Origin: Promethearchaeota archaeon
GTDB lineage: Archaea; Asgardarchaeota; Lokiarchaeia; Sigyniarchaeales; SOKP01
Assembly (NCBI GenBank): GCA_011364925.1
Contig: RDOA01000008.1
Span: 36,629 to 100,628 of the forward strand
DNA length: 64,000 bases
Direction: 5' to 3'
Positions 3,784 through 21,068 of this stretch are shown one piece after another. How positions within the stretch are numbered: the first letter of the stretch is position 1; every line of letters starts with the position of its first letter. Below the pieces are notes generated by a model. That model made no database searches, was not told where the DNA came from, and saw nothing but the letters and a program-made list of their open reading frames with translations. A program made the position numbers and the translations under genes.

Positions 3784-4494
3784 CTATAAAATCTCCTTAT
3801 TTTTCTGTAACTTCCAAACTCCAAATCCTTGAACTAAAAAACAGAGTAAGAAGGAATATTGAGAGATTTTTTGCATAGATGCTTGTAATATTAATCCGTC
3901 CAGAGTTATGGATTTTGGTATACTGATCAATACTATTGTATAGATCGCTGCGACAGCTAACAGCGCGACATAAACAAAACCATACAAGTTAGGATAGTCA
4001 TTATTGTAGAAAACTGCGATTGTAAAAAACAATATACCCACTATGCCAGTAATATTGAACAAATTCGCAAACATTAAATGCGTTCTATTAAAAAGATCCC
4101 AGGGAGTAAAAATAGTTACGATCAAGAATACAACTGAAGTTAGGCTAATTAAAGATCCAATTCTGGCTATTAAATACTGTTTTTTATCTTTTTTAAAATA
4201 CGATGAGAATATTAGAGCGAAGGGTATAAAGGAAAAGCTTAGAATTAATGCTGTAATTGTAAAAATTGTAAATGATACGAAATTTGGAGCCCCAGATAGT
4301 GCAAATACGCGCCCTAAATCGCTAAAGAAGTTTCCCCAGAAATAATATCCTGGACTTAAAGGATTTACCAAAGTGCCTCCCGCGTAAAAAAACATCGCTA
4401 TCGCCGTAAAAACTATATATTGTGTGGGTCCAAAAATTATAGATACCGACGCAAATAGTTTCCAATTTTTAATCATCTTCAATAAAACCACCAT
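3784..4494 (-). CDS. polytopic membrane protein, unknown function
   Basis: 236 aa with about 6 hydrophobic helices. Confidence 0.6.
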   Translation of the reverse strand: MVVLLKMIKNWKLFASVSIIFGPTQYIVFTAIAMFFYAGGTLVNPLSPGYYFWGNFFSDLGRVFALSGAPNFVSFTIFTITALILSFSFIPFALIFSSYFKKDKKQYLIARIGSLISLTSVVFLIVTIFTPWDLFNRTHLMFANLFNITGIVGILFFTIAVFYNNDYPNLYGFVYVALLAVAAIYTIVLISIPKSITLDGLILQASMQKISQYSFLLCFLVQGFGVWKLQKNKEIL

Positions 4495-4632: not shown

Positions 4633-5451
4633 CTACGCGTATTTAGGTTTTGAAATGAAACCTATAAATATGAGTAAATTGACGCCAATATCGATTAATT
4701 CAGCAATAATTCCAAAAGATAGGTTTGCGTTAATTAAGATCGTTCGGACTAAATTTGAGATCAGAAAACATATAAACGCTAATCCAATAATTAATCCATG
4801 TGCTTGGGTAAGCCGTTTGTTTTTATACATAAACAAAAACATGAACGCAATCGCAATATAGCTTAAAATCGTGATGAATGGAAACACGAGGTTAAGAAAG
4901 TTTAATGTGGGCGCTAATACGATAATCAAAGCTGTTACTATAACAAACCCAAGCATAATCCTCAATCTTAGCTTGCTAAACTGCTTCTTATTCATCTCTT
5001 TATCCTTATTCATGTTAATGTAGACAAGAACTGCTTCTAAACCGATATATAATATCGGAATTAAGTTTACGATGATTACGAAAAACCTGATTTTTGTTAA
5101 AAGCAAAACAAATTCAGTACTAAAGGTTCCAGATATAATTACTAAATTGTAAAAGATATCATAGACTTTTGCGCAAGTAAGTATTCCAAAAAAGGCTCCG
5201 AATAAAAAATAAGCATCTGATAGATATATTGCTTCTTGCTTAAACCATTTTCGAAAAAGAACGAACGACAATACTCCTAATATCAAGATTCTCACGAGTA
5301 TTGCCACTAAGCCTATCCACAGACCTTCAATGCCAAAAAACGCTGCAACTAAGCTAGACCAATACAAAGAGAACAATACGCTAAAGAAAATCATTAAAAC
5401 AAGAATTAAGGCAAAAATGCTGCAAATAAATTTTTTTCGTTTACTCTCCAT
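4633..5451 (-). CDS. polytopic membrane protein, unknown function
   Basis: 272 aa with about 8 hydrophobic helices. Confidence 0.6.
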   Translation of the reverse strand: MESKRKKFICSIFALILVLMIFFSVLFSLYWSSLVAAFFGIEGLWIGLVAILVRILILGVLSFVLFRKWFKQEAIYLSDAYFLFGAFFGILTCAKVYDIFYNLVIISGTFSTEFVLLLTKIRFFVIIVNLIPILYIGLEAVLVYINMNKDKEMNKKQFSKLRLRIMLGFVIVTALIIVLAPTLNFLNLVFPFITILSYIAIAFMFLFMYKNKRLTQAHGLIIGLAFICFLISNLVRTILINANLSFGIIAELIDIGVNLLIFIGFISKPKYA

Positions 5452-5661
5452 TATTAAAAACCTTTTAACAACGATTATGTGTCTATTTTTTTTTCTAAAA
5501 TATTTTAACTATTCTAAACATAATTTTGTAAATAGCTTTTAAAAACCCGAATTTTTTTCCATTGGCTTAATTTTAAGAAGATGAATTTCTATTATTTAAG
5601 AAAGAGTTTAGCTAAACATAAGATTATTTAGGGAAATATCTGCGTAGAATAAGGGTTGGGT

Positions 5662-7035
5662 ATGGTTTATTTTAAAATTAATGGATTAGGATATAACTGC
5701 GGTTATATCGAAAGTAAATGCCCAAAAGAAAAGACTTCTTGTATTGAATGCATTAAAGATCGTTTAAGAGATCTTGGATTTGAATTTGATTCGACAATAG
5801 AAATCTTTAAACTCGATTCTATCGAAAAACAGTTAGAGTTAGAAAGAGATACCATTTGGCAAAAATTTTTGGATGTATTAAACATTAAGCACATTCTAAT
5901 AATGGACAAGGAATCAGGATTAACCGTGATAAACTACACAGTATCAGGAGTAGATGTTGATGTAGAGCTTCTGAGTGGGTTTATACAAGCTAATATAACA
6001 TTTTCTGAATCAGGAGAAGCGTCTAAGCAAAACCTCGTATCCTCTTACGAAAATCTTTTTTACGAATTCCAATATAAAAGTTTTAATATTCTGCTTAAAG
6101 ATGGGAATCATGTTCGAATTTGCTTAATACTCGACCATAAGGCGTCTAATAAACTTCGAAATCACACATTTCGATTTGTAGAGGAATTTGAAGAGAAATT
6201 TGAAGAGGAACTTATTACTTTACGAAACACTGGTTCTATTAATTTCAATAACATGATAGATGATATTGTGGATAGTTTTAACATAAATCTTACATTTCCA
6301 ATGACTTTAGTACACTCAATTCCGCCATATGAGTTAGAAAAAGTAAAAAGAAGCATACTGCAGAAAGCGATATTTAATTTAGCAAAAGAAATGCTTGCGG
6401 TAAAACCGTTCTTCTTTATATACAACATGCTACAGCGTATTAAGAAAATTGTAAATATCGATGATGAAGTTATCCTCTTTGAGATTCACCAACTCTTAGA
6501 AAGACAAATCATTACTCCAACACCTATAGAAGCGATTGCAGATACCATAGAATCTGGTCAGTTGGCTGATAAGAAGAAAGAAACTAAAACTAGTTCAATA
6601 TCATCTATTATTATAAGTAAAACGGATACTGATGAACTAAAAAGCAAATTAGACACAATGGACAAATTTTCAGCACAGAAGTTAATTAAGGAATTGATGC
6701 GAAAAGCTAAAGCAGCAGAAAAAGAATCAACTTATCAAGTAACTCTTAACGAATACAATAAAGCTTTATTTATAGCTAAGGACTTTAAACTCAAAGATGA
6801 GATTAGCAAGATTAACCAAAAAATCTTTAATTTAGAGCACAAATCTAAAAATATAGAATTAGACTTTAATATTGAAAAAGCAGAAAATGCTGAAAAATAT
6901 GGCGATTTTATCAACAGCATCAATTATTATCAAAAAGCTTTAGAAATCCTTGACGAATTCATAGTTTATAATATTATCGACCCTAGAATAAAGAAGTTTA
7001 AGAAAAAAATCGCACAACTTCGAGAAGAGATCTGA
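5662..7035 (+). CDS. longin/roadblock-like domain protein with N-terminal 4-Cys cluster and C-terminal helical (TPR/MIT-like) region
   Basis: The ORF track starts at TTG 5656; the first ATG is at 5662 (MVYFKING). Cys cluster C-x6-C-x6-C-x2-C. The segment ILIMDKESGLTVINYTVSG..LLSGFIQANITFSE..HVRICLILD resembles longin/roadblock folds. K/E-rich helical C-terminus. Confidence 0.6.
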   Translation: MVYFKINGLGYNCGYIESKCPKEKTSCIECIKDRLRDLGFEFDSTIEIFKLDSIEKQLELERDTIWQKFLDVLNIKHILIMDKESGLTVINYTVSGVDVDVELLSGFIQANITFSESGEASKQNLVSSYENLFYEFQYKSFNILLKDGNHVRICLILDHKASNKLRNHTFRFVEEFEEKFEEELITLRNTGSINFNNMIDDIVDSFNINLTFPMTLVHSIPPYELEKVKRSILQKAIFNLAKEMLAVKPFFFIYNMLQRIKKIVNIDDEVILFEIHQLLERQIITPTPIEAIADTIESGQLADKKKETKTSSISSIIISKTDTDELKSKLDTMDKFSAQKLIKELMRKAKAAEKESTYQVTLNEYNKALFIAKDFKLKDEISKINQKIFNLEHKSKNIELDFNIEKAENAEKYGDFINSINYYQKALEILDEFIVYNIIDPRIKKFKKKIAQLREEI

Positions 7036-7167: not shown

Positions 7168-7674
7168 ATGGAAACAGTAAAAATCATCGTTTCTGGAGAT
7201 GGCGGAGTAGGAAAAACGTCATTTTTGAATCGTTTAGTCAATAATAGTTTTGACGATTTTAGTGAATTAACAAAAGGCGTCGATTTTTACTCAAAAAGGA
7301 TATTTGTTAATGGAACCGAATTTAATTTCATAATGTGGGATTTTGCTGGCCAAGATCGATTTAAAACATTGTTAAACGACTTTGTTGAAGGTTCACTTGC
7401 TGCTTTTATTCTTTTTGACTTATCAAGAATTAATACCATAGAAAATGTATATGAGTGGATAATTAATTTAGAATCATTCGGACAAATTCCTATAATATTA
7501 ATAGGAACAAAGGTGGACTTGATAACCCCATATCAATCCCAAACAATTGATACTTACATCTCAGAAATTAAGAAAGAGTATGAGAATGTAATCTCTTATA
7601 TAAAAATATCATCGAAGACTGGGGAAAATATAAAAAATGCTTTTGAAATTTTAATAGGAAATTTGTTTCGATAA
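7168..7674 (+). CDS. small GTPase, Rab/Ras-like (minimal 168 aa)
   Basis: G1 GDGGVGKTS, G3 WDFAGQDRF, G4 GTKVDL, G5 SSKTG. No C-terminal Cys or prenylation motif. Confidence 0.85.
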   Translation: METVKIIVSGDGGVGKTSFLNRLVNNSFDDFSELTKGVDFYSKRIFVNGTEFNFIMWDFAGQDRFKTLLNDFVEGSLAAFILFDLSRINTIENVYEWIINLESFGQIPIILIGTKVDLITPYQSQTIDTYISEIKKEYENVISYIKISSKTGENIKNAFEILIGNLFR

Positions 7675-8924: not shown

Positions 8925-9869
8925 ATGGCTGTAATACCCCGCAAATCTAACGAGTTTAAACTGGTTATTGCAGGATTGGATAACGCTGGTAAAACGAGCG
9001 CTCTAATAGCGTTAAGACAAAAATATAATTTTTACGAGCGAGTCAAGAATTTAAAACCAACGATAAAAATTGATTATAGCTCCTTTAAATTTCTTAATAA
9101 ATACCGAATTAATCTCTGGGATATGGGAGGACAAAAAAAATTCAGAAAGATCTATATTAATAATCCGATTTATTTTGAAGACACAGATTACATTTATTAT
9201 CTTATAGACATTCAAGATGAAGTCAAATTTGAGGAAGCTATTGAATATCTCCACGAATTACTTAAAATCTTTAGGAATCTGGCTTATCCTAACGAAGTAA
9301 TAGTCTGTTTTAACAAGTACGATCCCCAATTCAGAAATAACGAGGAATTTAGAGATCGAACAGATATGATTAAAAATTTGGTCAAATCACAAAACAAAGA
9401 TATTAAATTTGAATTTTATAACACATCATATTACGACATTTCATCGATTTCGAAAGCATTGTCTCGCTCGTTAAATAGTTTGTTAAATTTAAATGAAATA
9501 GATAACGGTTTAAATAATTTAGTAAGTAACTTTAATTGTAGATATGCAATATTATACACAGATTCAGGAATCATTATTTCTGATCATTATTTAGACACTA
9601 TGGACATAAGAGAGTTTGAAGATAAAATAAGCCATAAAATTAGCGGGGATCTTGAATTCTTTCAGATGTTAAAGGATGAAAATGTTAATATCGACGATAG
9701 AATCACATTTTCCCATGATAAAACTGACTATGTTAAAAAATTTTCAATCCTATCAGAGAATATGGACAATACTCTGTATATTGGGGTAAGTACGACAGTT
9801 AATAGTATTAATGAGGTTAAAATCGAATTAGAAAAACTAAGTAATGTCTTACAAACAAGTTTTGTATAA
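8925..9869 (+). CDS. Arf-motif GTPase with C-terminal roadblock-like domain (Rag/Gtr-like architecture)
   Basis: G1 GLDNAGKTS, G3 WDMGGQKKF, G4 NKYD in the first ~180 aa. The C-terminal ~130 aa (CRYAILYTDSGIIISDHY..ITFSHDKTDYVKKFSIL..TLYIGVSTT) has an alternating beta/alpha roadblock-like pattern. At 314 aa, its length and layout mirror eukaryotic RagA/Gtr1. Confidence 0.7.
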   Translation: MAVIPRKSNEFKLVIAGLDNAGKTSALIALRQKYNFYERVKNLKPTIKIDYSSFKFLNKYRINLWDMGGQKKFRKIYINNPIYFEDTDYIYYLIDIQDEVKFEEAIEYLHELLKIFRNLAYPNEVIVCFNKYDPQFRNNEEFRDRTDMIKNLVKSQNKDIKFEFYNTSYYDISSISKALSRSLNSLLNLNEIDNGLNNLVSNFNCRYAILYTDSGIIISDHYLDTMDIREFEDKISHKISGDLEFFQMLKDENVNIDDRITFSHDKTDYVKKFSILSENMDNTLYIGVSTTVNSINEVKIELEKLSNVLQTSFV

Positions 9870-9986
9870 ACATAATGGAAACCAGATGTACTATTATTTA
9901 ATTCGATTTTGACCCATTTGACCTTTTTTCTATTAAGTCTCACACTCAATCAAAAGCTTTTTCTTGAGTATAGGTTTTCTTCATTT

Positions 9987-10868
9987 ATGGCTCTTCAAAA
10001 AATGACTGCCAAAAAAATCATCGAGAAAAAGAGAAAAGGAGAAAAAATCGTAACCATTACTTCTTATGACTATTCGTTTGCTAAAATTGTCGACGATTGT
10101 GGGATTGACTTAATTCTCGTAGGTGACTCCCTTTCCATGGTTGTTCTTGGATACAAAAATACATTAGCAGTGACCATGGACGAAATGATTCACCACACTA
10201 AAGCAGTGACAAGAGGCGTTTCAAATGCGATGGTAGTTGGAGATATGCCCTTTTTGTCCTATAAAATTGGAGTCAAAAAAGCAGTCCAAAACGCGGGAAG
10301 ATTTATTCAAGAAGGAGGAGCAGAAGCGGTAAAAGTTGAGGGTGGAGCTAAAATCTGTCCGACTATAAAAGCAATGATAGATGCAGATATACAAGTAATG
10401 GGCCATATTGGTCTAACTCCTCAAGCAATATATGAATTTGGAGGTTTCTTAGTACAAGGAAAGACCATCGAAGGAGCGAAAACTTTAATTATTGATGCTA
10501 AGAAGTTGGAAAAAACGGGAGTGTTTTCAATAGTACTTGAGAGTATACCGTGGCAAATTGCAAAATTAATAACTCAATCGGTAGATATTCCTACCATTGG
10601 TATAGGGGCTGGTTCGTATTGTGATGGACAAATATTAGTTATTAACGATATGTTGGGGCTTTTTACAGACTTCAAACCAAAATTTCTAAAATATTTTGGA
10701 GATATTGGTAATTCCGTCAAAATGGCCGTTAACGACTACCAAAACGAGGTAAAAAGTGGTCTCTATCCTGATATAGAACACTCCTATGAATTCCCAAAAG
10801 AAGATTTGAATGAGATCGAAGAATGGTTTGAAAACACTGATCTCGAAAATGAAGTAGGCGAAAAGTAG
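9987..10868 (+). CDS. panB: 3-methyl-2-oxobutanoate hydroxymethyltransferase (ketopantoate hydroxymethyltransferase)
   Basis: [66 protein letters not shown] match PanB. The ORF-track start at 9909 adds a non-homologous leader, so ATG 9987 is preferred. Confidence 0.85.
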
Positions 10869-11092: not shown

Positions 11093-12835
11093 ATGGCCGA
11101 AGAATACGATTTTTTGTTTAAATCGATTGTGGTAGGTGATGGCGGAGTTGGTAAAACAGCACTTACGCTCCGTTTCTCAAAAGGTTTTTTCACTGAAGAT
11201 TACAAAATGACAATCGGTGTTGATTTCCACGTAAAGACAATTTCAATTGATACATCTGAAGGGCCTATCAAGTGTAAGCTCCAACTCTGGGATACTGGGG
11301 GTCAAGAACGATTTAGCTCGATAAGACCAATGTACTATAGAGGATCGTTAGGAACTGTACTCGTTTTTGATCTCACAAATTCAGAAAGTTTTGGACATTT
11401 ACCACAATGGATACAAGAAGTCAGAGCTAACATAAAAGCTGATATTCCGGTGCTTCTTGTCGGAAATAAAAGCGATCTAGTTGACCAGAGAGCCGTCTCG
11501 GCGGAGGATGTAAGTAAATTTACAAGAGACTTTAACCTATATTATATGGAAACTTCGGCTAAAACGGGTGATGGAGTTGGAGATTGTTTTTACATTCTTG
11601 CATGCTTAATGATAGGACAGGGTGTTCCTGAACAATTAATTGCAAACTCAATCGTTTTTGCTCCAGGACAATTTGCTACACCAGCCGTTCAAATTTCTTC
11701 GCAACCAATAGTTACTAAGGAACCTCAAAGCAATTATATCGCACCATCTGTTCCAGGACATATCCAAAACTTGAAAGAGGAGCCTGAAATAGAGTTTGAG
11801 GCACCACCAGTTCCTGAACCGAAGTTATCAAAAGTTCGAGGTCCAACGTCTCCTTTCATTTCCGATTCAGAGATTGAATTTGAGGCTCCACCTGTTCCTG
11901 AACCACCACTAAAAGCGAAACCGCAACCTACTCCCGAAATCTCTCTACCTGAACCAACTGAAATAGAGTTTAAAACTCCTGATGAAATTATGATCAAAGA
12001 AGCTATAAAATCCGAACTTGATACATTAACAAGCGGTGACAATGTCTATAAACCTAAGACTGCACCTTTTACACCCAATGCTCCAGAACCTACAGCACCT
12101 CCTAAAGAATTTCAGAGTTCTTATTCAGAAGAACCAATCGAGAGATCTCCTATCCACACACCATTTCGCGTTATTAAAAGAGAAGAGTCTCCTAAACCTC
12201 AACCAGCTTCAATGACGTTTGAACCTAGCCCTTCACCTCAACCAGAATCAACTGAATCTTTAGAATCAACCTCTGATTCGTTGATCGACTATATGCCTCA
12301 AACAATTTTAACGAAAAAAGAGAAGAAAAAGCAAGCAAAGGAAAAGAAAAAACAAGAAAAAGAGAAAGCAAAAATAGAAAAAGAGAAGAAAATGCTCGAA
12401 GAAAGGGAGAAACAAGAAGAATTGATCAAAGAAATGAAAAAATCTAAAAAATCTAAAAAGGAAAAACCCATCGTAACCCAAACATCAGAACCAACGCAAG
12501 CACCTACTATAAGTCGACCAGAAACTGGTATGAATTCCTTATTCCAAACCCTCACCCAAAAATCTGAAGTCTCCCCACCAGATCAGAGTGTCCCATTTAT
12601 ACCTTTTTCGGGAACAAGCAAAACTAAAGAAGAAGGGACATCTAAATTAAGAATCATCCCAAATGTAGCAGACATTGATGCAAACTCTAACGGTTTCACA
12701 GCTTTTACTTCGTCTCAATCCAATCCAGATGAAGAACCAAAAGCTAAAACTAAAGATCTCTTAATTTGCGAGCAGTGTGGTTCAATCTTATCTGCTGATT
12801 ATGCATATTGTAACAAATGTGGTAATAAGTTATAG
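11093..12835 (+). CDS. Rab-like small GTPase with ~400-aa disordered/repeat extension and C-terminal zinc ribbon
   Basis: G domain: GDGGVGKTAL, YKMTIGVDF, WDTGGQERF, GNKSDL, ETSAKTG. It is followed by P/E-rich repeats (EIEFEAPPVPEP twice, then EIEFKTPDE), a K/E block, and the terminal CEQCGSILSADYAYCNKCGNKL. Confidence 0.85.
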   Translation: MAEEYDFLFKSIVVGDGGVGKTALTLRFSKGFFTEDYKMTIGVDFHVKTISIDTSEGPIKCKLQLWDTGGQERFSSIRPMYYRGSLGTVLVFDLTNSESFGHLPQWIQEVRANIKADIPVLLVGNKSDLVDQRAVSAEDVSKFTRDFNLYYMETSAKTGDGVGDCFYILACLMIGQGVPEQLIANSIVFAPGQFATPAVQISSQPIVTKEPQSNYIAPSVPGHIQNLKEEPEIEFEAPPVPEPKLSKVRGPTSPFISDSEIEFEAPPVPEPPLKAKPQPTPEISLPEPTEIEFKTPDEIMIKEAIKSELDTLTSGDNVYKPKTAPFTPNAPEPTAPPKEFQSSYSEEPIERSPIHTPFRVIKREESPKPQPASMTFEPSPSPQPESTESLESTSDSLIDYMPQTILTKKEKKKQAKEKKKQEKEKAKIEKEKKMLEEREKQEELIKEMKKSKKSKKEKPIVTQTSEPTQAPTISRPETGMNSLFQTLTQKSEVSPPDQSVPFIPFSGTSKTKEEGTSKLRIIPNVADIDANSNGFTAFTSSQSNPDEEPKAKTKDLLICEQCGSILSADYAYCNKCGNKL

Positions 12836-12871: not shown

Positions 12872-13654
12872 CTAAAGATTTTTACCACAAATGGGACAAG
12901 TACTCCATATTTTCTTAATCTTTGAATTACAATAAGGACAAGTTTTTAAATCTGGGTCTATTTGAGTTTGAAGTTTTCCAAAAATGGTTACATTATCTTC
13001 AGCACTATAACTTTTTGGCTGATGCGGTGGCTGAATCTCTCTACTATTTGTGTAAATTTGAGAAGATGTATCTATGGGTTCTTGCAGTTTTTCTTGAATT
13101 CTAAGATTTCGTTCTTGGTCTATAGTATCAGGTAGCTCTAACATTTCGTTGTATTCGCTTGAAACAGCAGCTCCTTGAGGAATTTGTTGGTTAACCTCAG
13201 ATTCTTCGATAGGAATACCGACTTCGTAATGAAAATATTTGCCCTCGTTATTTTCAATCACTGTTTCGCCATGAGCCAAAAGAACTTCAATATAATAGAT
13301 AATTATAGAACCCATTGGGACATCATTTATTTCGGCAATAAAATAATCCAATTCTTGTTCCATTCGCAAGCGATACCATGACTTTCCATGATCAGCACTA
13401 AAAATTAGAAGGACTCTTTCTAATGTGGTACTGAAATCTTCCTCTGTGATTTTAACAACAATTTTAATCGTTTTTTTTAAAATTTCTGTTTGTCCAACAG
13501 ATTCCGCTGCCTTTGTAGAATCCCATGCAGCGCCACATTTAGGGCAGTTAGTAAACCAATTTGGGTATACAAATTGACAATTGGTGCAATTTTTCGTAAA
13601 ATATCTAGTAGTTTTTATTCCAAGTGTTTTTTTTTTATCTTTTCCCATTATCAA
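12872..13654 (-). CDS. double zinc-ribbon protein, unknown function
   Basis: N-terminal CTNCQFVYPNWFTNCPKCG and C-terminal CPYCNSKIKKIWSTCPICG flank a beta-rich ~90-aa core and an acidic linker. Confidence 0.6.
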   Translation of the reverse strand: MIMGKDKKKTLGIKTTRYFTKNCTNCQFVYPNWFTNCPKCGAAWDSTKAAESVGQTEILKKTIKIVVKITEEDFSTTLERVLLIFSADHGKSWYRLRMEQELDYFIAEINDVPMGSIIIYYIEVLLAHGETVIENNEGKYFHYEVGIPIEESEVNQQIPQGAAVSSEYNEMLELPDTIDQERNLRIQEKLQEPIDTSSQIYTNSREIQPPHQPKSYSAEDNVTIFGKLQTQIDPDLKTCPYCNSKIKKIWSTCPICGKNL

Positions 13655-13765: not shown

Positions 13766-14941
13766 TTATAATTTTAGTTTTTTTACAATTTTTTCTAAAT
13801 CATCAGCAAAACGAGATAAGTGTTGTCTTTTTACATGAGGCATTACAACAATTCTAATTAAATTTAAGTCATTGAATTTCCCTAACATCCACAAATTTTT
13901 GCGTAGCGCTTGTTCGAGCTCACACACACTATCTCCGTTTTCAGTGGTGATGCCTACAATATTCAATACGGGATTAGTAGCGATTTTTACCCCTTGAATT
14001 TCAGATATTCTTTGCACTAAGTATTCAGTGTTTTCCATACACTTTTTAACGATTTCTTTGAATCCATTAATGCCTAAATACTTTAAAATCACCCAAAACG
14101 CAATAATTGGACCTCCAGGTCTAGTGCCGACGATATGAAAATGCTTAAATGATCCACCAGCTAAATACGGGATTTCAAAACCTGTCCTCTGTAATATTGA
14201 AGCATCTTTGATAAAATAACCACCTGAAGGAATTACTCCTAGTCCCATTTTATGAGGATCAGCTGTAATTGAATCTACTGTATTTACGGAAAAATCCCAT
14301 GAAGGAACCTTATAACCCAGCCTTTTAAGAAAGGGCAAAACAAATCCTCCGAATGCGGCATCTATGTGAAAGAAAATGTCTTTCCCTTCAATCAATTTCC
14401 CTATTTTTTCAATAGGGTCAACTAATCCTAAGGAGGTAGTACCCGCAACTCCAACAATCGCGCATGTATTTTTGTTAATTAATGATTCAAAGTGATCTAA
14501 ATCTACTTGATAATTTTCTAAGAGTTTAGCTTTTCTCAATTTAAGGTTCAAGAAGTCTGCAGCTTTATCAAAAGAAAGATGAGCAGAAGCTGGAACCACA
14601 ATTTCGGGCTTTTTTATGTCAGGTCGTAAATTTCTAGCTATTCTCATCGCTATCAGATTAGCTTCAGACCCTCCTGTAGTGAATGCCCCAATAATATTAT
14701 TGTTTCCGAATAAATCACCAATTTCTAAAACTAGTTCCTCCTCAAGTTCTGCTGTGCCTAAAAATAACCCTGGGTCACCTAAATTCTTAGAAATATACTT
14801 TAGATAGATTTCCTTAGCAAGATCTAAAGGTTCTGTGCACATAGATCCTAAGATTGACCCTGAATCGTAAGAAAAATCTTTCTCTAACTTCTTGTCAAGC
14901 AATTCGAGTATCTCTCGTTTCTCTAAGCCTTCTTCTTGCAT
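13766..14941 (-). CDS. mfnA: PLP-dependent group II decarboxylase, MfnA-type (tyrosine/aspartate decarboxylase)
   Basis: GGSEANL, HIDAAFGG and DPHKMG (PLP lysine) motifs. In non-methanogens this family supplies beta-alanine for CoA synthesis, and panB lies nearby. Confidence 0.8.
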   Translation of the reverse strand: MQEEGLEKREILELLDKKLEKDFSYDSGSILGSMCTEPLDLAKEIYLKYISKNLGDPGLFLGTAELEEELVLEIGDLFGNNNIIGAFTTGGSEANLIAMRIARNLRPDIKKPEIVVPASAHLSFDKAADFLNLKLRKAKLLENYQVDLDHFESLINKNTCAIVGVAGTTSLGLVDPIEKIGKLIEGKDIFFHIDAAFGGFVLPFLKRLGYKVPSWDFSVNTVDSITADPHKMGLGVIPSGGYFIKDASILQRTGFEIPYLAGGSFKHFHIVGTRPGGPIIAFWVILKYLGINGFKEIVKKCMENTEYLVQRISEIQGVKIATNPVLNIVGITTENGDSVCELEQALRKNLWMLGKFNDLNLIRIVVMPHVKRQHLSRFADDLEKIVKKLKL

Positions 14942-15421: not shown

Positions 15422-17560
15422 TTACGAATGTAAAGTATACCGTTTTCTCGATTCCCATTCAGCTTTCTTACCTAAATTATATCTATTTACTTCGCTATAG
15501 TACCCCGTAATTCTCGAATACACCTTAACGTCTCCAGATTGACAAATTGGACAATTAAAAGTTCCACCCCGGAACATTTTTCTGCAATGAGGGCAAAAAG
15601 TAAAATCAGTTGTGTAAGCGAAATACGCTGTGTTTGTATTGAGACAAATGTTTTTAGTCAACTCCCATAAGCCATGAATATCTGGATTCTGCTCACCGAG
15701 CCAAATATGAGTAATTACACCTCCTTCTACAATGGGGTGCAAATCTCCTTGCTTTTTAATCCTTTCAGGTAAACTTATATCAGCATCATATCTGAAATGG
15801 CTAGAATTTGTATAGTATGCTGACTCACCTGAAGATTGCGGGATTGCTTGTTTAGGGAAATGCTTCAAATCTAATCTTGCAAATCTTCCGGAACTAGATT
15901 CAGCAGGTTGTTCCCATAAAGAAAAGCTAATTCTTTCCCTCTCTGTCATGAAATTGCACTTAGCTACCATATATTCTAAAACTTTTTTTCCTAATTTATA
16001 TGCAGTCTCATTTTCATGTAATTCGTATCCAGTCAATCCCTTCATGGCTTCGTTCAAACCAGTAAAGCCGATCGAAAGGTTTTGATCTTTTAAATTAAAA
16101 ATTGATTTTCCATTAATTTCGCCACTACATAAGGGTAGATGCCCCGATCTTAAACGCTTTTCCATTAAGCTCCATTTTTTTAGTAAAATCCTCGCAGAAA
16201 GCTCTATTTTTTCATCTAAAATCCTAAAATAATCATCTTCATTATTAGCCATATATGCATATCTTGGTAAATTAAGACTAACGCTTTGAAGTGAGCCAAT
16301 TGAGACATAATTCTCCCATACATTAGCATTCTTTCTTTCTTCGGAATCTAATATACATTTACTAATAATCTGATTTCCACTTAAAAATTTTCGACAACAT
16401 TGGCTATGAATTTCGTCTGGCATCCATTCAGGACACATATTAAGAAAATAGGGAGTCCCCATTTTCGCAACTTCTTCCATTAACTTAATGTAGGATGGTT
16501 CGAACTCTTTTAACCATTCCTTTTTAATTTTTATTTCGTGTTTCGGAAACGCAAACAGCTTTCCATCGTAATCTCCTTGGATATAAACGTCGGTAAGAGC
16601 ATCAAAAAGTTTTAAACACTCCTCTTTATAATCCTCATACTTTCCAATGACTTTACCATGGGGACCAATAGCGGGGATGTTTAGCAACCCGTCAGGTATT
16701 GTGGGAGTACATGATATTGATGTAAAGGGTACTTGACCTCCTCGAGCTGCAAAAATTTGATTTGTTTCAAATATTAAGCATTGCATAGATTGTTCGATTT
16801 CTCCCGCGGAAAGACCATGTGCATAAGGAGCGAGGAATGTAGTAATATAGTCGTACCCCTGACCGCCTGAAAATTCGCCCTGAATAGTGCCTAACCATTT
16901 AGCTAAGTGTGTTACTGCTACCCTTAAACTTCCTGCAGGACCCGATCGATTACAATGAGCCCAACTATTTACAGGTGGTAATCCGTGTTCAAGAATCATA
17001 CGTGGATCCCATTCCTGACAAAAAGGTCGAAGGTCGAAATATCTAAGCATATGTACGTGAATATCTCCACATAAATGGGCTTGTGCTTCTTCAGAGTCTA
17101 AAATTCTTAGGAGAGCGTATTCATCAGAAATTCTATTTGCAGCCCAATGATGAATACTCTCTGGGTTCATATCTTGATTAGCGTTTTCATTAATACCCTT
17201 CTCAAGTATTGCTTCATAATCCATTAAAGGCATACCGATTCGAGTATATAGCTTACGTTCATCCTCGTAGTGTTCTTCTGATAAAATTGAGCACACAATT
17301 TCTCGTATGTGTGGGCCTGATAAAAATGATATATTAGAGGAAATAATTCTCCTCACAACTAATTGCGTAATTCTGTCAGCAGATTCTAAATCGAGCCCTG
17401 TTTCGCGCATAATGCTTTCTTTTATTTTTAAAGGGTTAAAAGGTACTACATCGCCTTCTGTTCGTGAAACTCTCGGTAATAAATTCTTTAAAAATCCACT
17501 TTCTAACAGCTTTTTTTCGTTAGTAGTTTCAGATTCTGGAGTTAAAACCATAACAATCAT
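15422..17560 (-). CDS. nrdD: anaerobic ribonucleoside-triphosphate reductase (class III RNR)
   Basis: N-terminal ATP-cone. C-terminal Zn site CPHC..CPIC followed by the glycyl-radical motif SRITGYY. Confidence 0.9.
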   Translation of the reverse strand: MIVMVLTPESETTNEKKLLESGFLKNLLPRVSRTEGDVVPFNPLKIKESIMRETGLDLESADRITQLVVRRIISSNISFLSGPHIREIVCSILSEEHYEDERKLYTRIGMPLMDYEAILEKGINENANQDMNPESIHHWAANRISDEYALLRILDSEEAQAHLCGDIHVHMLRYFDLRPFCQEWDPRMILEHGLPPVNSWAHCNRSGPAGSLRVAVTHLAKWLGTIQGEFSGGQGYDYITTFLAPYAHGLSAGEIEQSMQCLIFETNQIFAARGGQVPFTSISCTPTIPDGLLNIPAIGPHGKVIGKYEDYKEECLKLFDALTDVYIQGDYDGKLFAFPKHEIKIKKEWLKEFEPSYIKLMEEVAKMGTPYFLNMCPEWMPDEIHSQCCRKFLSGNQIISKCILDSEERKNANVWENYVSIGSLQSVSLNLPRYAYMANNEDDYFRILDEKIELSARILLKKWSLMEKRLRSGHLPLCSGEINGKSIFNLKDQNLSIGFTGLNEAMKGLTGYELHENETAYKLGKKVLEYMVAKCNFMTERERISFSLWEQPAESSSGRFARLDLKHFPKQAIPQSSGESAYYTNSSHFRYDADISLPERIKKQGDLHPIVEGGVITHIWLGEQNPDIHGLWELTKNICLNTNTAYFAYTTDFTFCPHCRKMFRGGTFNCPICQSGDVKVYSRITGYYSEVNRYNLGKKAEWESRKRYTLHS

Positions 17561-19856: not shown

Positions 19857-21068
19857 TTAAGTATACATTCTTGATTGAACAGACTGATCTTTCATTTTAT
19901 TCATTACTTTATTTACAGCTTCAACAAAATCTTCTTTGACGATTTGCTCTGCATCTTTCCTGATTGCAAACATTCCAGCTTCAGTGCATATGGCTTTGAT
20001 ATCCGCTCCAGTAGCCCCCTCGGTTAATTCAACTAACCTATTAAAGTTAACTTCACCTTCAATATTTAAAGCTCTAGTGTGAATTTTGAATATTGATTTT
20101 CTTGATTCTTCGTCTGGTATGGGAAAATCAATCATTCGATCAAATCTACCTGGTCTTAATAAAGCAGGATCTAAGATATCGATTCGATTTGTTGCTCCAA
20201 TTATTTTTACATCACCTCTTTGCTCAAATCCGTCTAATTCGCTTAACAATTGCATTAAGGTCCTCTGAACTTCCCTATCTCCAGAAGTGGCAATTTTTAA
20301 TCTTTGTGAACCAATTGCGTCTAATTCGTCAATAAATAAAATTGTGGGCGCTTTTTGTTTTGCTAAATTGAAAATTTCTCTTACTAAGCGAGCACCTTCA
20401 CCAATAAATTTCTGAACTAATTCAGAACCAATTATTCTGATAAAAGTCGCTTCAGTTTCGTGAGCAACTGCTTTTGCTACGAGAGTCTTACCTGTACCCG
20501 GGGGTCCATAAAGCAAAACTCCTTTAGGAGGATCGATTCCTACTTTTTTAAATAAATCCGGTTTTAAAAGAGGTAATTCGACAGTTTCTCTTACTTCTTG
20601 TATTTGATCACTTAATCCACCTACGTCTTCGTAAGAGATGTCTGGAATTTCGTCTATTACTTCCATTCCTTTCACAAATGGATCCAATTTAGTCGGTAGA
20701 ATCTCCATAATTGCGAAAGTTCTCTGATTTAAGGCGACTCGCATACCAGGAGTTAAATTCTCATTTTTCACTTTTCTACTGGGGTTAACAACAAAACTAG
20801 GTCCTGTGGAGCTCTTAACAATGACTTTTCCCGTGTCTTCTAACATATCAATTACAGTAGCTGACACTAATGGAGGCTCTCTTAATCTGTCAATCTCATT
20901 TCTTAGACTATTTAATTCCTGCTCTAATCTTAAACGCTCTGCATCTAAAAGTTGCTTCTCCGTTTCAAGATTTCTTAATCTTTTTTCTAAATGCCTCGTA
21001 TAGGTGATTAGATATTCTTCATCTTTCGAAGTTTCTTCCTTTTTTCTCCTGTCCTTAGTCGTTGTCAA
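19857..21068 (-). CDS. pan: proteasome-activating nucleotidase (Rpt-like AAA+ ATPase)
   Basis: N-terminal coiled coil, OB segment, Walker A GPPGTGKT, pore loop KFIGEG, Walker B FIDELD, SRH PGRFDR, C-terminal HbYX (MYT). The only in-frame start upstream of the coiled coil is TTG 21066-21068. Confidence 0.9.

Follow-up and report, generated by a model that had tools for sequence, protein, structure and literature searches.

RabZn, a Rab-like GTPase of an Asgard archaeon with a motif-bearing, predicted disordered tail and a C-terminal zinc ribbon

How do the small GTPases of Asgard archaea, which reportedly are without prenylation motifs or machinery, reach their site of action? The question is raised by a gene in a stretch of 64,000 nucleotides of DNA from a Promethearchaeota archaeon (NCBI GenBank assembly GCA_011364925.1, contig RDOA01000008.1, positions 36,629 to 100,628 of the forward strand), which was analysed as a whole and is called the window below; positions are counted from its first letter and those of the main features are collected in Table 1. 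The 580-amino-acid (aa) product of this gene is identical to NCBI entry NHJ20243.1 of a Candidatus Lokiarchaeota metagenome-assembled genome (MAG), where it is merely labelled 'GTP-binding protein'. It consists of a Rab-type G domain, a tail of ~370 aa rich in Pro, Glu, Lys and Ser, and a C-terminal CxxC-x10-CxxC zinc ribbon, and it represents a new architectural variant of Rab-like GTPase. The working names RabZn, for this GTPase family, and dZnR, for a neighbouring gene encoding a double-zinc-ribbon protein, were coined in this analysis. The elements quoted in a first reading of the DNA (the original prediction) are all present in the 580-aa frame, including the repeats near 11786, 11870 and 11958-11960, a block rich in Lys and Glu (the K/E block) and, at the C-terminus, CEQCGSILSADYAYCNKCGNKL.

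The G domain and the C-terminal end

Residues 10-170 match the Pfam Ras family (E=1.2e-52, 178 bits against a cut-off of 21.6), and the GTPase also matches the small_GTP model TIGR00231 with 90 bits (cut-off 42.5). The G motifs are intact: the P-loop GDGGVGKT, switch II WDTGGQERF with the catalytic Gln71, GNKSD and ETSAK. On these features, RabZn can be classed as a small GTPase of the Ras superfamily. The closest solved structures in a PDB search were all eukaryotic Rabs, with Rab30 (1.9e-45) followed by Rab8A, Rab1 and Ypt1, while the Thorarchaeota Rab 7EZB was matched at 4e-39. The canonical Rab-type G domain that had been predicted is borne out by the Pfam match and by these best PDB matches. 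Counterparts of RabF1-F5 can be read in the G domain as IGVDF, KLQLW, RFSSIR, YYRGS and LVFDLT; Pereira-Leal and Seabra reportedly gave them in 2000 as IGVDF, KLQIW, RFRSIT, YYRGA and LVYDIT.

The C-terminus carries none of the prenylatable cysteine motifs CC, CXC, CCXX or CAAX. As the original prediction held, the protein ends in ...CNKCGNKL, with the last Cys located five residues from the C-terminus and all four Cys residues in the CxxC pairs of the ribbon. Because a prenylatable Cys was looked for and found to be missing, RabZn is filed here, on its sequence, among the Rab-like GTPases of the Ras superfamily rather than with the Rabs sensu stricto. In a published phylogeny, Asgard Ras-like sequences are placed outside the Rab clade proper and none of them is specifically sister to the Rabs (10.1101/2024.02.28.582541).

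Conservation, selection and predicted structure of the tail

The tail is biased in composition (P 14 %, E 13 %, K 12 %, S 11 %) and is covered by no model in scans of Pfam and NCBIfam. A search with the tail only (aa 181-580) retrieved 303 protein clusters, nearly all of them Ras-domain proteins of 540-600 aa that align over 100 % of the tail at 41-97 % identity. A tail profile, searched against 1.84 billion representative proteins, gave 44 members or fragments at E<1e-10; further matches were a few weaker full-length distant relatives, and the rest were only generic zinc ribbons. Scanning one genome per species yielded 104 relatives, 78 loci of which were kept, all from Asgard MAGs; the family is hence represented in no fewer than 78 Asgard species genomes. 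Across these 78 loci the G domain is 78-92 % identical. Most of the loci are labelled Promethearchaeota or Promethearchaeia, and the taxonomic breadth of the family inside Asgard is uncertain because the MAG labels are inconsistent. The names Promethearchaeum syntrophicum MK-D1 and Lokiarchaeum ossiferum do not occur among the 78 loci kept from the 104 relatives, and the supplement of PMC10933270 contains no text matching an orthologue in cultured strains.

The orthologues are 528-660 aa long. Alignments of 100 and of 77 full-length members show a near-invariant G domain followed by conserved islands that alternate with variable linkers. At least nine such short islands are present in the tail, and dozens of tail positions are invariant across the 77 sequences. 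The earlier description of the extension as ~400 aa of low-complexity sequence was therefore right as to its biased composition and overstated otherwise, given the many position-specific islands. The proline zone of the tail contains three xPPVPEP cores, the first of which is degenerate in the RabZn protein and the last two of which follow E-I-E-[YF]-E; an island that is listed after the proline cores in the alignments is PEPTEIEFKTPDEIL. The acidic-aromatic motif on which the original prediction had centred is indeed conserved, but it is one of the at least nine islands, and its aromatic residue is Tyr, not Phe, in most orthologues.

At the DNA level, the two full motif copies form a direct repeat of 35 nucleotides (nt) at 11786-11820 and 11870-11904, with 86 % identity and a spacing of 84 nt. 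A shorter third copy at 11958-11971 has 14 nt identical to 11784-11797, and in frame this copy reads EIEFKTPDEIMI. Copies 1 and 2 differ in 6 of 36 bases, all of which are located at the third codon position and are synonymous. The best self-match of 12 aa within the tail is 12/12, compared with a maximum of 9/12 and a mean of 6.4 in 300 shuffles of the tail codons. Tandem Repeats Finder reported only the K/E block (period 21, at 12315-12392) and one 9-nt repeat at 12437-12459; the 84-nt periodicity escaped it, since similarity is confined to the motif cores and the intervening linkers are unrelated. Every one of 69 orthologues carries two to four [AST]PP[VIM]PE cores. Of the 96 intervals between cores, 56 measure 28 residues and 16 measure 20. 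The xPPVPE motif was found in no other protein of the 64-kb window or of ~1 Mb of related loci.

The ratio of nonsynonymous to synonymous substitutions (dN/dS) was calculated according to Nei and Gojobori for 195 moderately diverged pairs among 68 species-level orthologues taken from the loci. It amounted to 0.048 for the G domain and to 0.226 for the whole tail. Within the tail, the values were 0.153 for the proline-motif zone, 0.35 for aa 301-405, 0.076 for the K/E helix, 0.33 for aa 459-553 and 0.087 for the zinc ribbon. The tail motifs are under purifying selection. A repeat that is not conserved and drifts neutrally, the outcome named beforehand as speaking against the original prediction, was thus looked for and not found: the orthologues keep the motifs, at a dN/dS of 0.15. 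Since the ribbon is near-invariant at the extreme C-terminus, the extension appears to be read to its end in the sequenced relatives.

AlphaFold2 (AF2) was run with the 77-sequence alignment. The full-length model had a mean predicted local distance difference test (pLDDT) score of 52.8 and was used solely to indicate disorder and helix, not for fold searches. Most of aa 196-553 has a pLDDT below 50; helices stand out at 408-453, with a pLDDT of 82-89, and, less confidently, at 296-313 (pLDDT ~60). With its predicted disorder, its islands between linkers and the selection acting on them, the tail can be classed as a predicted disordered region bearing short linear motifs. The repeats had been proposed to be such motifs, and they behave accordingly in view of their conservation among orthologues, the exclusively synonymous differences between the copies, the dN/dS of their zone and the predicted disorder around them.

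The K/E block, which is predicted to form one long helix, is net basic throughout the family: the most charged window of 40 aa has a net charge of +3 to +14, with a median of +8, in 69 orthologues. In orthologue P0127 the block reaches ~130 aa and consists of ER/K-type repeats, which would fit a charged single-helix spacer with basic ends. Sparse Ile, Leu and Met residues in the second half of the helix could also support a short coiled coil. A hydrophobic segment is absent from the tail, in which the highest Kyte-Doolittle mean over 19 aa is 0.68. In the terminal ribbon, C559, Q561, C562, G563, L566, S567, D569, Y570, C573, N574, K575, C576, G577 and L580 are invariant in the 77 sequences, and PF13240 is recorded for many orthologues. 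RanBP2/NZF, FYVE, ArfGAP and DUF2072 were considered as identities for the ribbons of the GTPase and of dZnR and were rejected, as none gave a Pfam match at E<=0.1.

The neighbouring gene and more distant loci

The gene dZnR is located directly downstream of RabZn and is convergent with it in 78 of 78 loci. Its product starts with a conserved Lys-rich stretch and is laid out as zinc ribbon, beta-sandwich, linker and zinc ribbon. The beta-sandwich (aa 58-142) was modelled by AF2 with a pLDDT of 70-84, and Foldseek returned only generic Ig/CBM-like matches for it. A conserved motif, TIFGKLQTQIDPxLKxC, precedes the second ribbon. Homologues of dZnR fall into 344 clusters, and NCBIfam holds no model for the protein.

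Two more distant lineages contain proteins with a Rab-like G domain, ~60 % identical to that of RabZn, and a P/E/K/S-rich tail of 300-450 aa that can barely be aligned beyond the ribbon. These tails carry two to four ΦPxΦP cores (IPPVPKK, IPEIPKS, APPVPEP, APPIPEP), where ~0.04 would be expected from composition, and ΦTF[DE] occurs in them as a further motif. Immediately before the ribbon, CxxCGxxLxxxYxFCN[KR]CG, which is the last element, there is a pure polybasic run (KKKKKKKRKEKK, KSKKRKRRKKKR or KKKERKLRGKKKQK). Judged by these elements, the distant proteins retain the architecture rather than the sequence of RabZn. They are also linked to dZnR homologues. At locus L080, a homologue with 26 % identity is located directly downstream on the same strand, among different flanking genes. 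In the second lineage, the gap between the RabZn-like and the dZnR genes is 1.7 kb (L083), 4.3 kb (L085 and L086), 5.5 kb (L079) or 10.5 kb (L082 and L087). Linkage has thus been found in three lineages and in three arrangements, always in the same neighbourhood, with the distant homologues 0.3-10.5 kb away.

Several side observations were made at the distant loci. The dZnR homologue at L080 (3396-4097, plus strand), which lies beside P0200, has EEPPVPETVP in its own linker; this single case shows the same proline core as the GTPase tails. In the second distant lineage a gene with IFT52-GIFT/ABC_transp_aux domains is located between the Rab-like and double-ribbon genes. A link to IFT-type Rab-like GTPases was considered and dropped as lineage-specific synteny, since neither the window nor any of the 78 core loci contains a homologue of the IFT52-GIFT gene. 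In P0155 (781 aa) and P0156 (879 aa), a RabZn-type G domain follows a coiled-coil and winged-helix-like sequence and a terminal ribbon is lacking; P0156 additionally contains a second Ras-like domain and a gelsolin-like stretch. Both may be real fusions or artefacts of gene calling.

In the window, the RabZn/dZnR pair is flanked by panB, for ketopantoate hydroxymethyltransferase (9909-10868, plus strand), and by a gene for an MfnA-type decarboxylase dependent on pyridoxal phosphate (PLP; 13766-14941, minus strand). Both flanking genes are, in our judgement, plausibly related to pantothenate/coenzyme A, so that the pair looks as if it had been inserted into a metabolic gene pair. Three small-GTPase genes lie inside 6 kb: besides RabZn itself, these encode a 168-aa single-domain Ras-type protein (7168-7674, plus strand) and a 314-aa Gtr1/RagA-like protein that is extended C-terminally by ~130 aa (8925-9869, plus strand). 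The RagA-like gene is kept upstream in many of the 78 related loci. Three open reading frames of 236-459 aa, at 3784-4494 (minus strand), 4633-5451 (minus strand) and 5656-7035 (plus strand), have no Pfam match at E<=0.001. Downstream are the genes for the anaerobic ribonucleotide reductase NrdD (15422-17560, minus strand) and for a PAN-like proteasome-activating AAA ATPase (19857-21068, minus strand). NrdD is also found near the Rab-like gene in the distant loci L079, L085 and L086, which suggests positional orthology across the lineages.

Table 1 Features of RabZn and of genes associated with it; positions refer to the window unless a locus is named
Feature	Position (nt)	Strand	Residues (aa)	Basis or remarks
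RabZn gene	11093..12835	+		Single uninterrupted open reading frame, 580 aa
Rab-like G domain	11093..11647	+	1-185	Pfam, PDB matches, G motifs
Degenerate proline core, APSVPGH	11741..11761	+	217-223	Alignments; APPVPEP in most orthologues
Motif copy 1, EIEFEAPPVPEP	11786..11821	+	232-243	Direct repeat; conserved E-I-E-[YF]-E-A-P-P-V-P-E-P
Motif copy 2, EIEFEAPPVPEP	11870..11905	+	260-271	Direct repeat; A265, P266, P267, V268, P269 invariant (77 sequences)
Related motif, EIEFKTPDEIM	11960..11992	+	290-300	Most widely conserved island of the zone; starts the predicted helix aa 296-313
Island YKPKTxPFT...PxPAPxPKEF	12047..12112	+	319-340	Y319, P321, P325, F326, P333, P337, F340 invariant
Island TPFRVxKREExPKPQPASMTFEP	12158..12226	+	356-378	Alignments
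Island SLxDYMPQTI	12278..12307	+	396-405	L397, D399 invariant
Net-basic K/E block	12314..12466	+	408-458	AF2: one long helix; 25 K+R against 13 D+E
Island SLFQTLTQK	12536..12562	+	482-490	L483, F484, Q485, L487 invariant
Island SVPFxPF	12587..12607	+	499-505	Alignments
Island SKLRIIPNVADI	12641..12676	+	517-528	L519, I522, P523 invariant
Zinc ribbon, LICEQCGSILSADYAYCNKCGNKL, and stop	12758..12835	+	556-580	CxxC-x10-CxxC, invariant columns
dZnR, EAX91_04810, annotated as 'hypothetical'	12872..13654	-		258 aa; Pfam DZR; candidate partner, convergent with RabZn
IFT52-GIFT/ABC_transp_aux gene	L079 2353-3363; L083 3073-4035; L085 6721-7656; L086 6723-7655; L087 6729-7760			Distant lineage

Modes of action and known systems

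Taken together, the data suggest a Rab-like switch that is anchored without a lipid, in which a G domain is joined through a motif-bearing disordered tether to a C-terminal docking module. This joint reading is put forward tentatively, as one that is about as apt to fail as to hold, or slightly more so. The tether of ~370 residues would carry two to four acidic-aromatic xPPVPE units at fixed spacing and at least seven other islands, and the docking module would comprise the net-basic helix and the zinc ribbon. From this layout, we infer both the binding events and the docking target. The motifs in the tether may recruit several partners, effectors or regulators, simultaneously; the ribbon, aided by the basic segment, would fix the far end to a partner protein or an anionic surface; and cycling between GTP and GDP at the G domain would control assembly at the docking site. 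The leading candidate for the partner is the product of dZnR, the basic N-terminus and ribbons of which may provide a link to the membrane. A ribbon that takes the place of the prenyl anchor, as first suggested for this protein, would fit the architecture, the basic segment and the presence of dZnR next door. Such a tethered switch is made plausible by published findings on CdpC and on ArvA/ArvC, which are compared below, and on UEV-Vps23: an Asgard UEV-Vps23 with a predicted PXXP ligand has been reported (10.1101/2023.07.25.550441) and could be a reader of proline motifs, for which SH3-like, WW and profilin types were considered as well. Going further, RabZn and dZnR might form a two-part, prenylation-independent localisation system in which the ribbon and the basic helix would hold the GTPase, by way of dZnR, at the membrane or at a site associated with the cytoskeleton or ESCRT, with the evenly spaced PxΦP motifs recruiting proline readers such as the UEV domain of an ESCRT-I-like Vps23. 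We hold this extended version to be rather unlikely; if true, a long, motif-coded 'hypervariable region' would predate both the eukaryotes and the lipid anchoring of Rabs.

A number of observations weigh against the proposed docking of RabZn through its C-terminus. The Pfam matches to zinc ribbons (aa 559-580) are below their gathering scores, with 18.4 against 25 bits for Zn_Ribbon_1 and 16.9 against 27.3 for a second profile, among families of the Zn_Ribbon_1 PF13240/DZR PF12773 type. AF2 modelled the ribbon with low confidence (pLDDT 56-67), as two short hairpin strands, and placed no island against either the ribbon or the G domain. Its model was also weak for the first 40 residues of the latter, probably because the alignment contains close relatives only. 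In the core family, ~100 residues separate the basic helix from the ribbon downstream of it, and the tail as a whole carries a net negative charge (-8). As regards the partner, RabZn and dZnR are convergent and are therefore not co-transcribed. The whole neighbourhood is syntenic, as most of the 78 loci keep panB and the PLP decarboxylase too, and a macro-synteny of their own is seen among the distant loci. As gene order is conserved as a whole, the linkage amounts to about three independent observations rather than 80.

Direct anchoring would do away with a partner: the basic helix and the ribbon would bind anionic archaeal lipids unaided, in place of polybasic-plus-prenyl C-termini, and dZnR would be irrelevant. 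The net-basic segment is kept in all orthologues, and in the distant lineages the polybasic run directly precedes the ribbon. The lack of a prenylation motif points the same way, as do the report that REP and RabGGTase were not found in Asgard archaea (PMC10933270) and the requirement of the zinc-ribbon N-terminal domain of CdpC for membrane binding (10.64898/2026.07.16.738847). In CdpC, however, an amphipathic helix touches the membrane and the ribbon does not, and the RabZn tail contains no hydrophobic or clearly amphipathic segment, as its low Kyte-Doolittle maximum indicates. The basic helix of the core family, far from the ribbon, is interleaved with Glu in the manner of an ER/K single alpha-helix spacer, and Asgard GTPase-related proteins, the RabZn family not being among those tested, were cytosolic in HeLa cells. 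Direct anchoring is, on balance, unlikely. The Lys-rich helix and the ribbon could also bind RNA or DNA and couple the switch to translation, ribosome biogenesis or chromatin. Lys-rich segments beside small CxxC ribbons are a typical feature of proteins of the ribosome and of transcription, and fragments of the tail have been given the automatic JGI names 'ribosomal protein L40E' and 'RPABC4/Spt4'. Such names mirror generic ribbon similarity only, and Pfam (below threshold) and the profile search beyond the family likewise yielded nothing but generic ribbon families. The G domain is of the Rab/Ras type and not of the TRAFAC ribosome-GTPase class, and neither the window nor the 78 loci show a genomic link to translation or transcription genes, which makes a role in nucleic acid or ribosome binding quite improbable.

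The tail might instead act in cis, with its motifs or its ribbon folding back on the G domain according to nucleotide state, as an inhibitor or as elements resembling a guanine nucleotide dissociation inhibitor, a GTPase-activating protein or a guanine nucleotide exchange factor. C-terminal regions regulate many eukaryotic GTPases, eukaryotic effectors such as rabphilin bind Rabs through zinc-finger modules, and conservation within RabZn is highest in the G domain and the ribbon. Against this, AF2 showed no intramolecular docking, the tether of 370 aa is much longer than regulation in cis would need, and repeated motifs at conserved spacing are better explained by multivalent binding in trans; we regard regulation in cis as very doubtful. 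The biased composition, the repeats and the variation in length among orthologues would all be expected if the tail were an inert spacer, a fast-evolving low-complexity filler with repeats produced by recent slippage and no sequence-specific role. This is the only rival explanation that the data contradict, and it is barely credible: dN/dS is at most 0.35 in every tail segment, dozens of positions do not vary among the 77 sequences, and the two motif copies differ only synonymously while motif number and spacing are conserved.

The anchored and tethered switch proposed above can be approached experimentally with a 12-residue peptide, a 25-residue ribbon, a 50-residue helix and the 258-aa neighbour protein. 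The G domain of RabZn is among the most Rab-like in Asgard genomes and is combined with a motif-bearing tail under selection, an invariant ribbon and a candidate partner gene, which makes RabZn a testable candidate for the localisation of pre-eukaryotic Rab-like switches without lipid anchors. Regulation through short linear motifs arrayed along extended disordered regions is usually deemed a eukaryotic style; here, one such array is under clear purifying selection in an archaeal signalling protein. Literature searches turned up no account of a Rab-like GTPase that combines a disordered tail with a zinc ribbon, and one directed at disorder and short linear motifs in the GTPases of Asgard archaea returned nothing relevant.

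Among known systems, the eukaryotic Rabs of the Rab1, Rab8 and Rab30 group are closest to RabZn in their G domain (E ~1e-45), in the G motifs and in having RabF1-F5. They share with it the logic of a switch domain followed by a disordered C-terminal linker and a terminal localisation element. The linker of RabZn is ~10 times longer and contains many conserved motifs, however, and the protein ends in a four-Cys ribbon where the eukaryotic Rabs have a geranylgeranylated CC, CXC or CAAX motif. The Asgard Rab-like/RasL proteins have been described as C-terminally truncated, without an extension or terminal cysteines (PMC10933270). These proteins, for example 7EZB, belong to the same G-domain class and phylum as RabZn, which differs from them in its 400-aa extension with the Cys4 ribbon at its end. 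A Lys-rich segment near the C-terminus of a small GTPase is also known from K-Ras4B, Rit and Rin, and the pure polybasic run of the distant RabZn lineages resembles these in preceding a terminal element that contains Cys. In RabZn itself, by contrast, the basic segment is a predicted helix of ~50 aa interleaved with Glu, and a lipidation site is missing. The K/E block is similar to ER/K single alpha-helix spacers in composition, in giving a confident, isolated long helix in AF2 and in its variation in length between ~50 and 130 aa; its net charge is clearly positive, whereas that of the spacers is balanced.

Two archaeal systems offer parallels for the combination with dZnR. In Haloferax, CdpC ties FtsZ1 to the membrane by means of terminal zinc ribbons and a long disordered linker, and distant multi-ribbon relatives of CdpC have been reported in Lokiarchaeia (10.64898/2026.07.16.738847). 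When compared by description, dZnR shares the ribbon/linker/ribbon outline of CdpC; it has an extra beta-sandwich, and CdpC is without a GTPase domain. The haloarchaeal ArvA/ArvB/ArvC module, in which the small GTPase ArvA is encoded in an operon with the zinc-ribbon protein ArvC, controls the formation of extracellular vesicles (PMC10927574). In both ArvA/ArvC and RabZn/dZnR, an archaeal small GTPase and a zinc-ribbon protein are linked genetically. ArvC belongs to DUF2072, to which dZnR gives no Pfam match at E<=0.1, and ArvA is tailless and not Rab-like. The genes of the Arv module form an operon, whereas RabZn and dZnR are a convergent pair.

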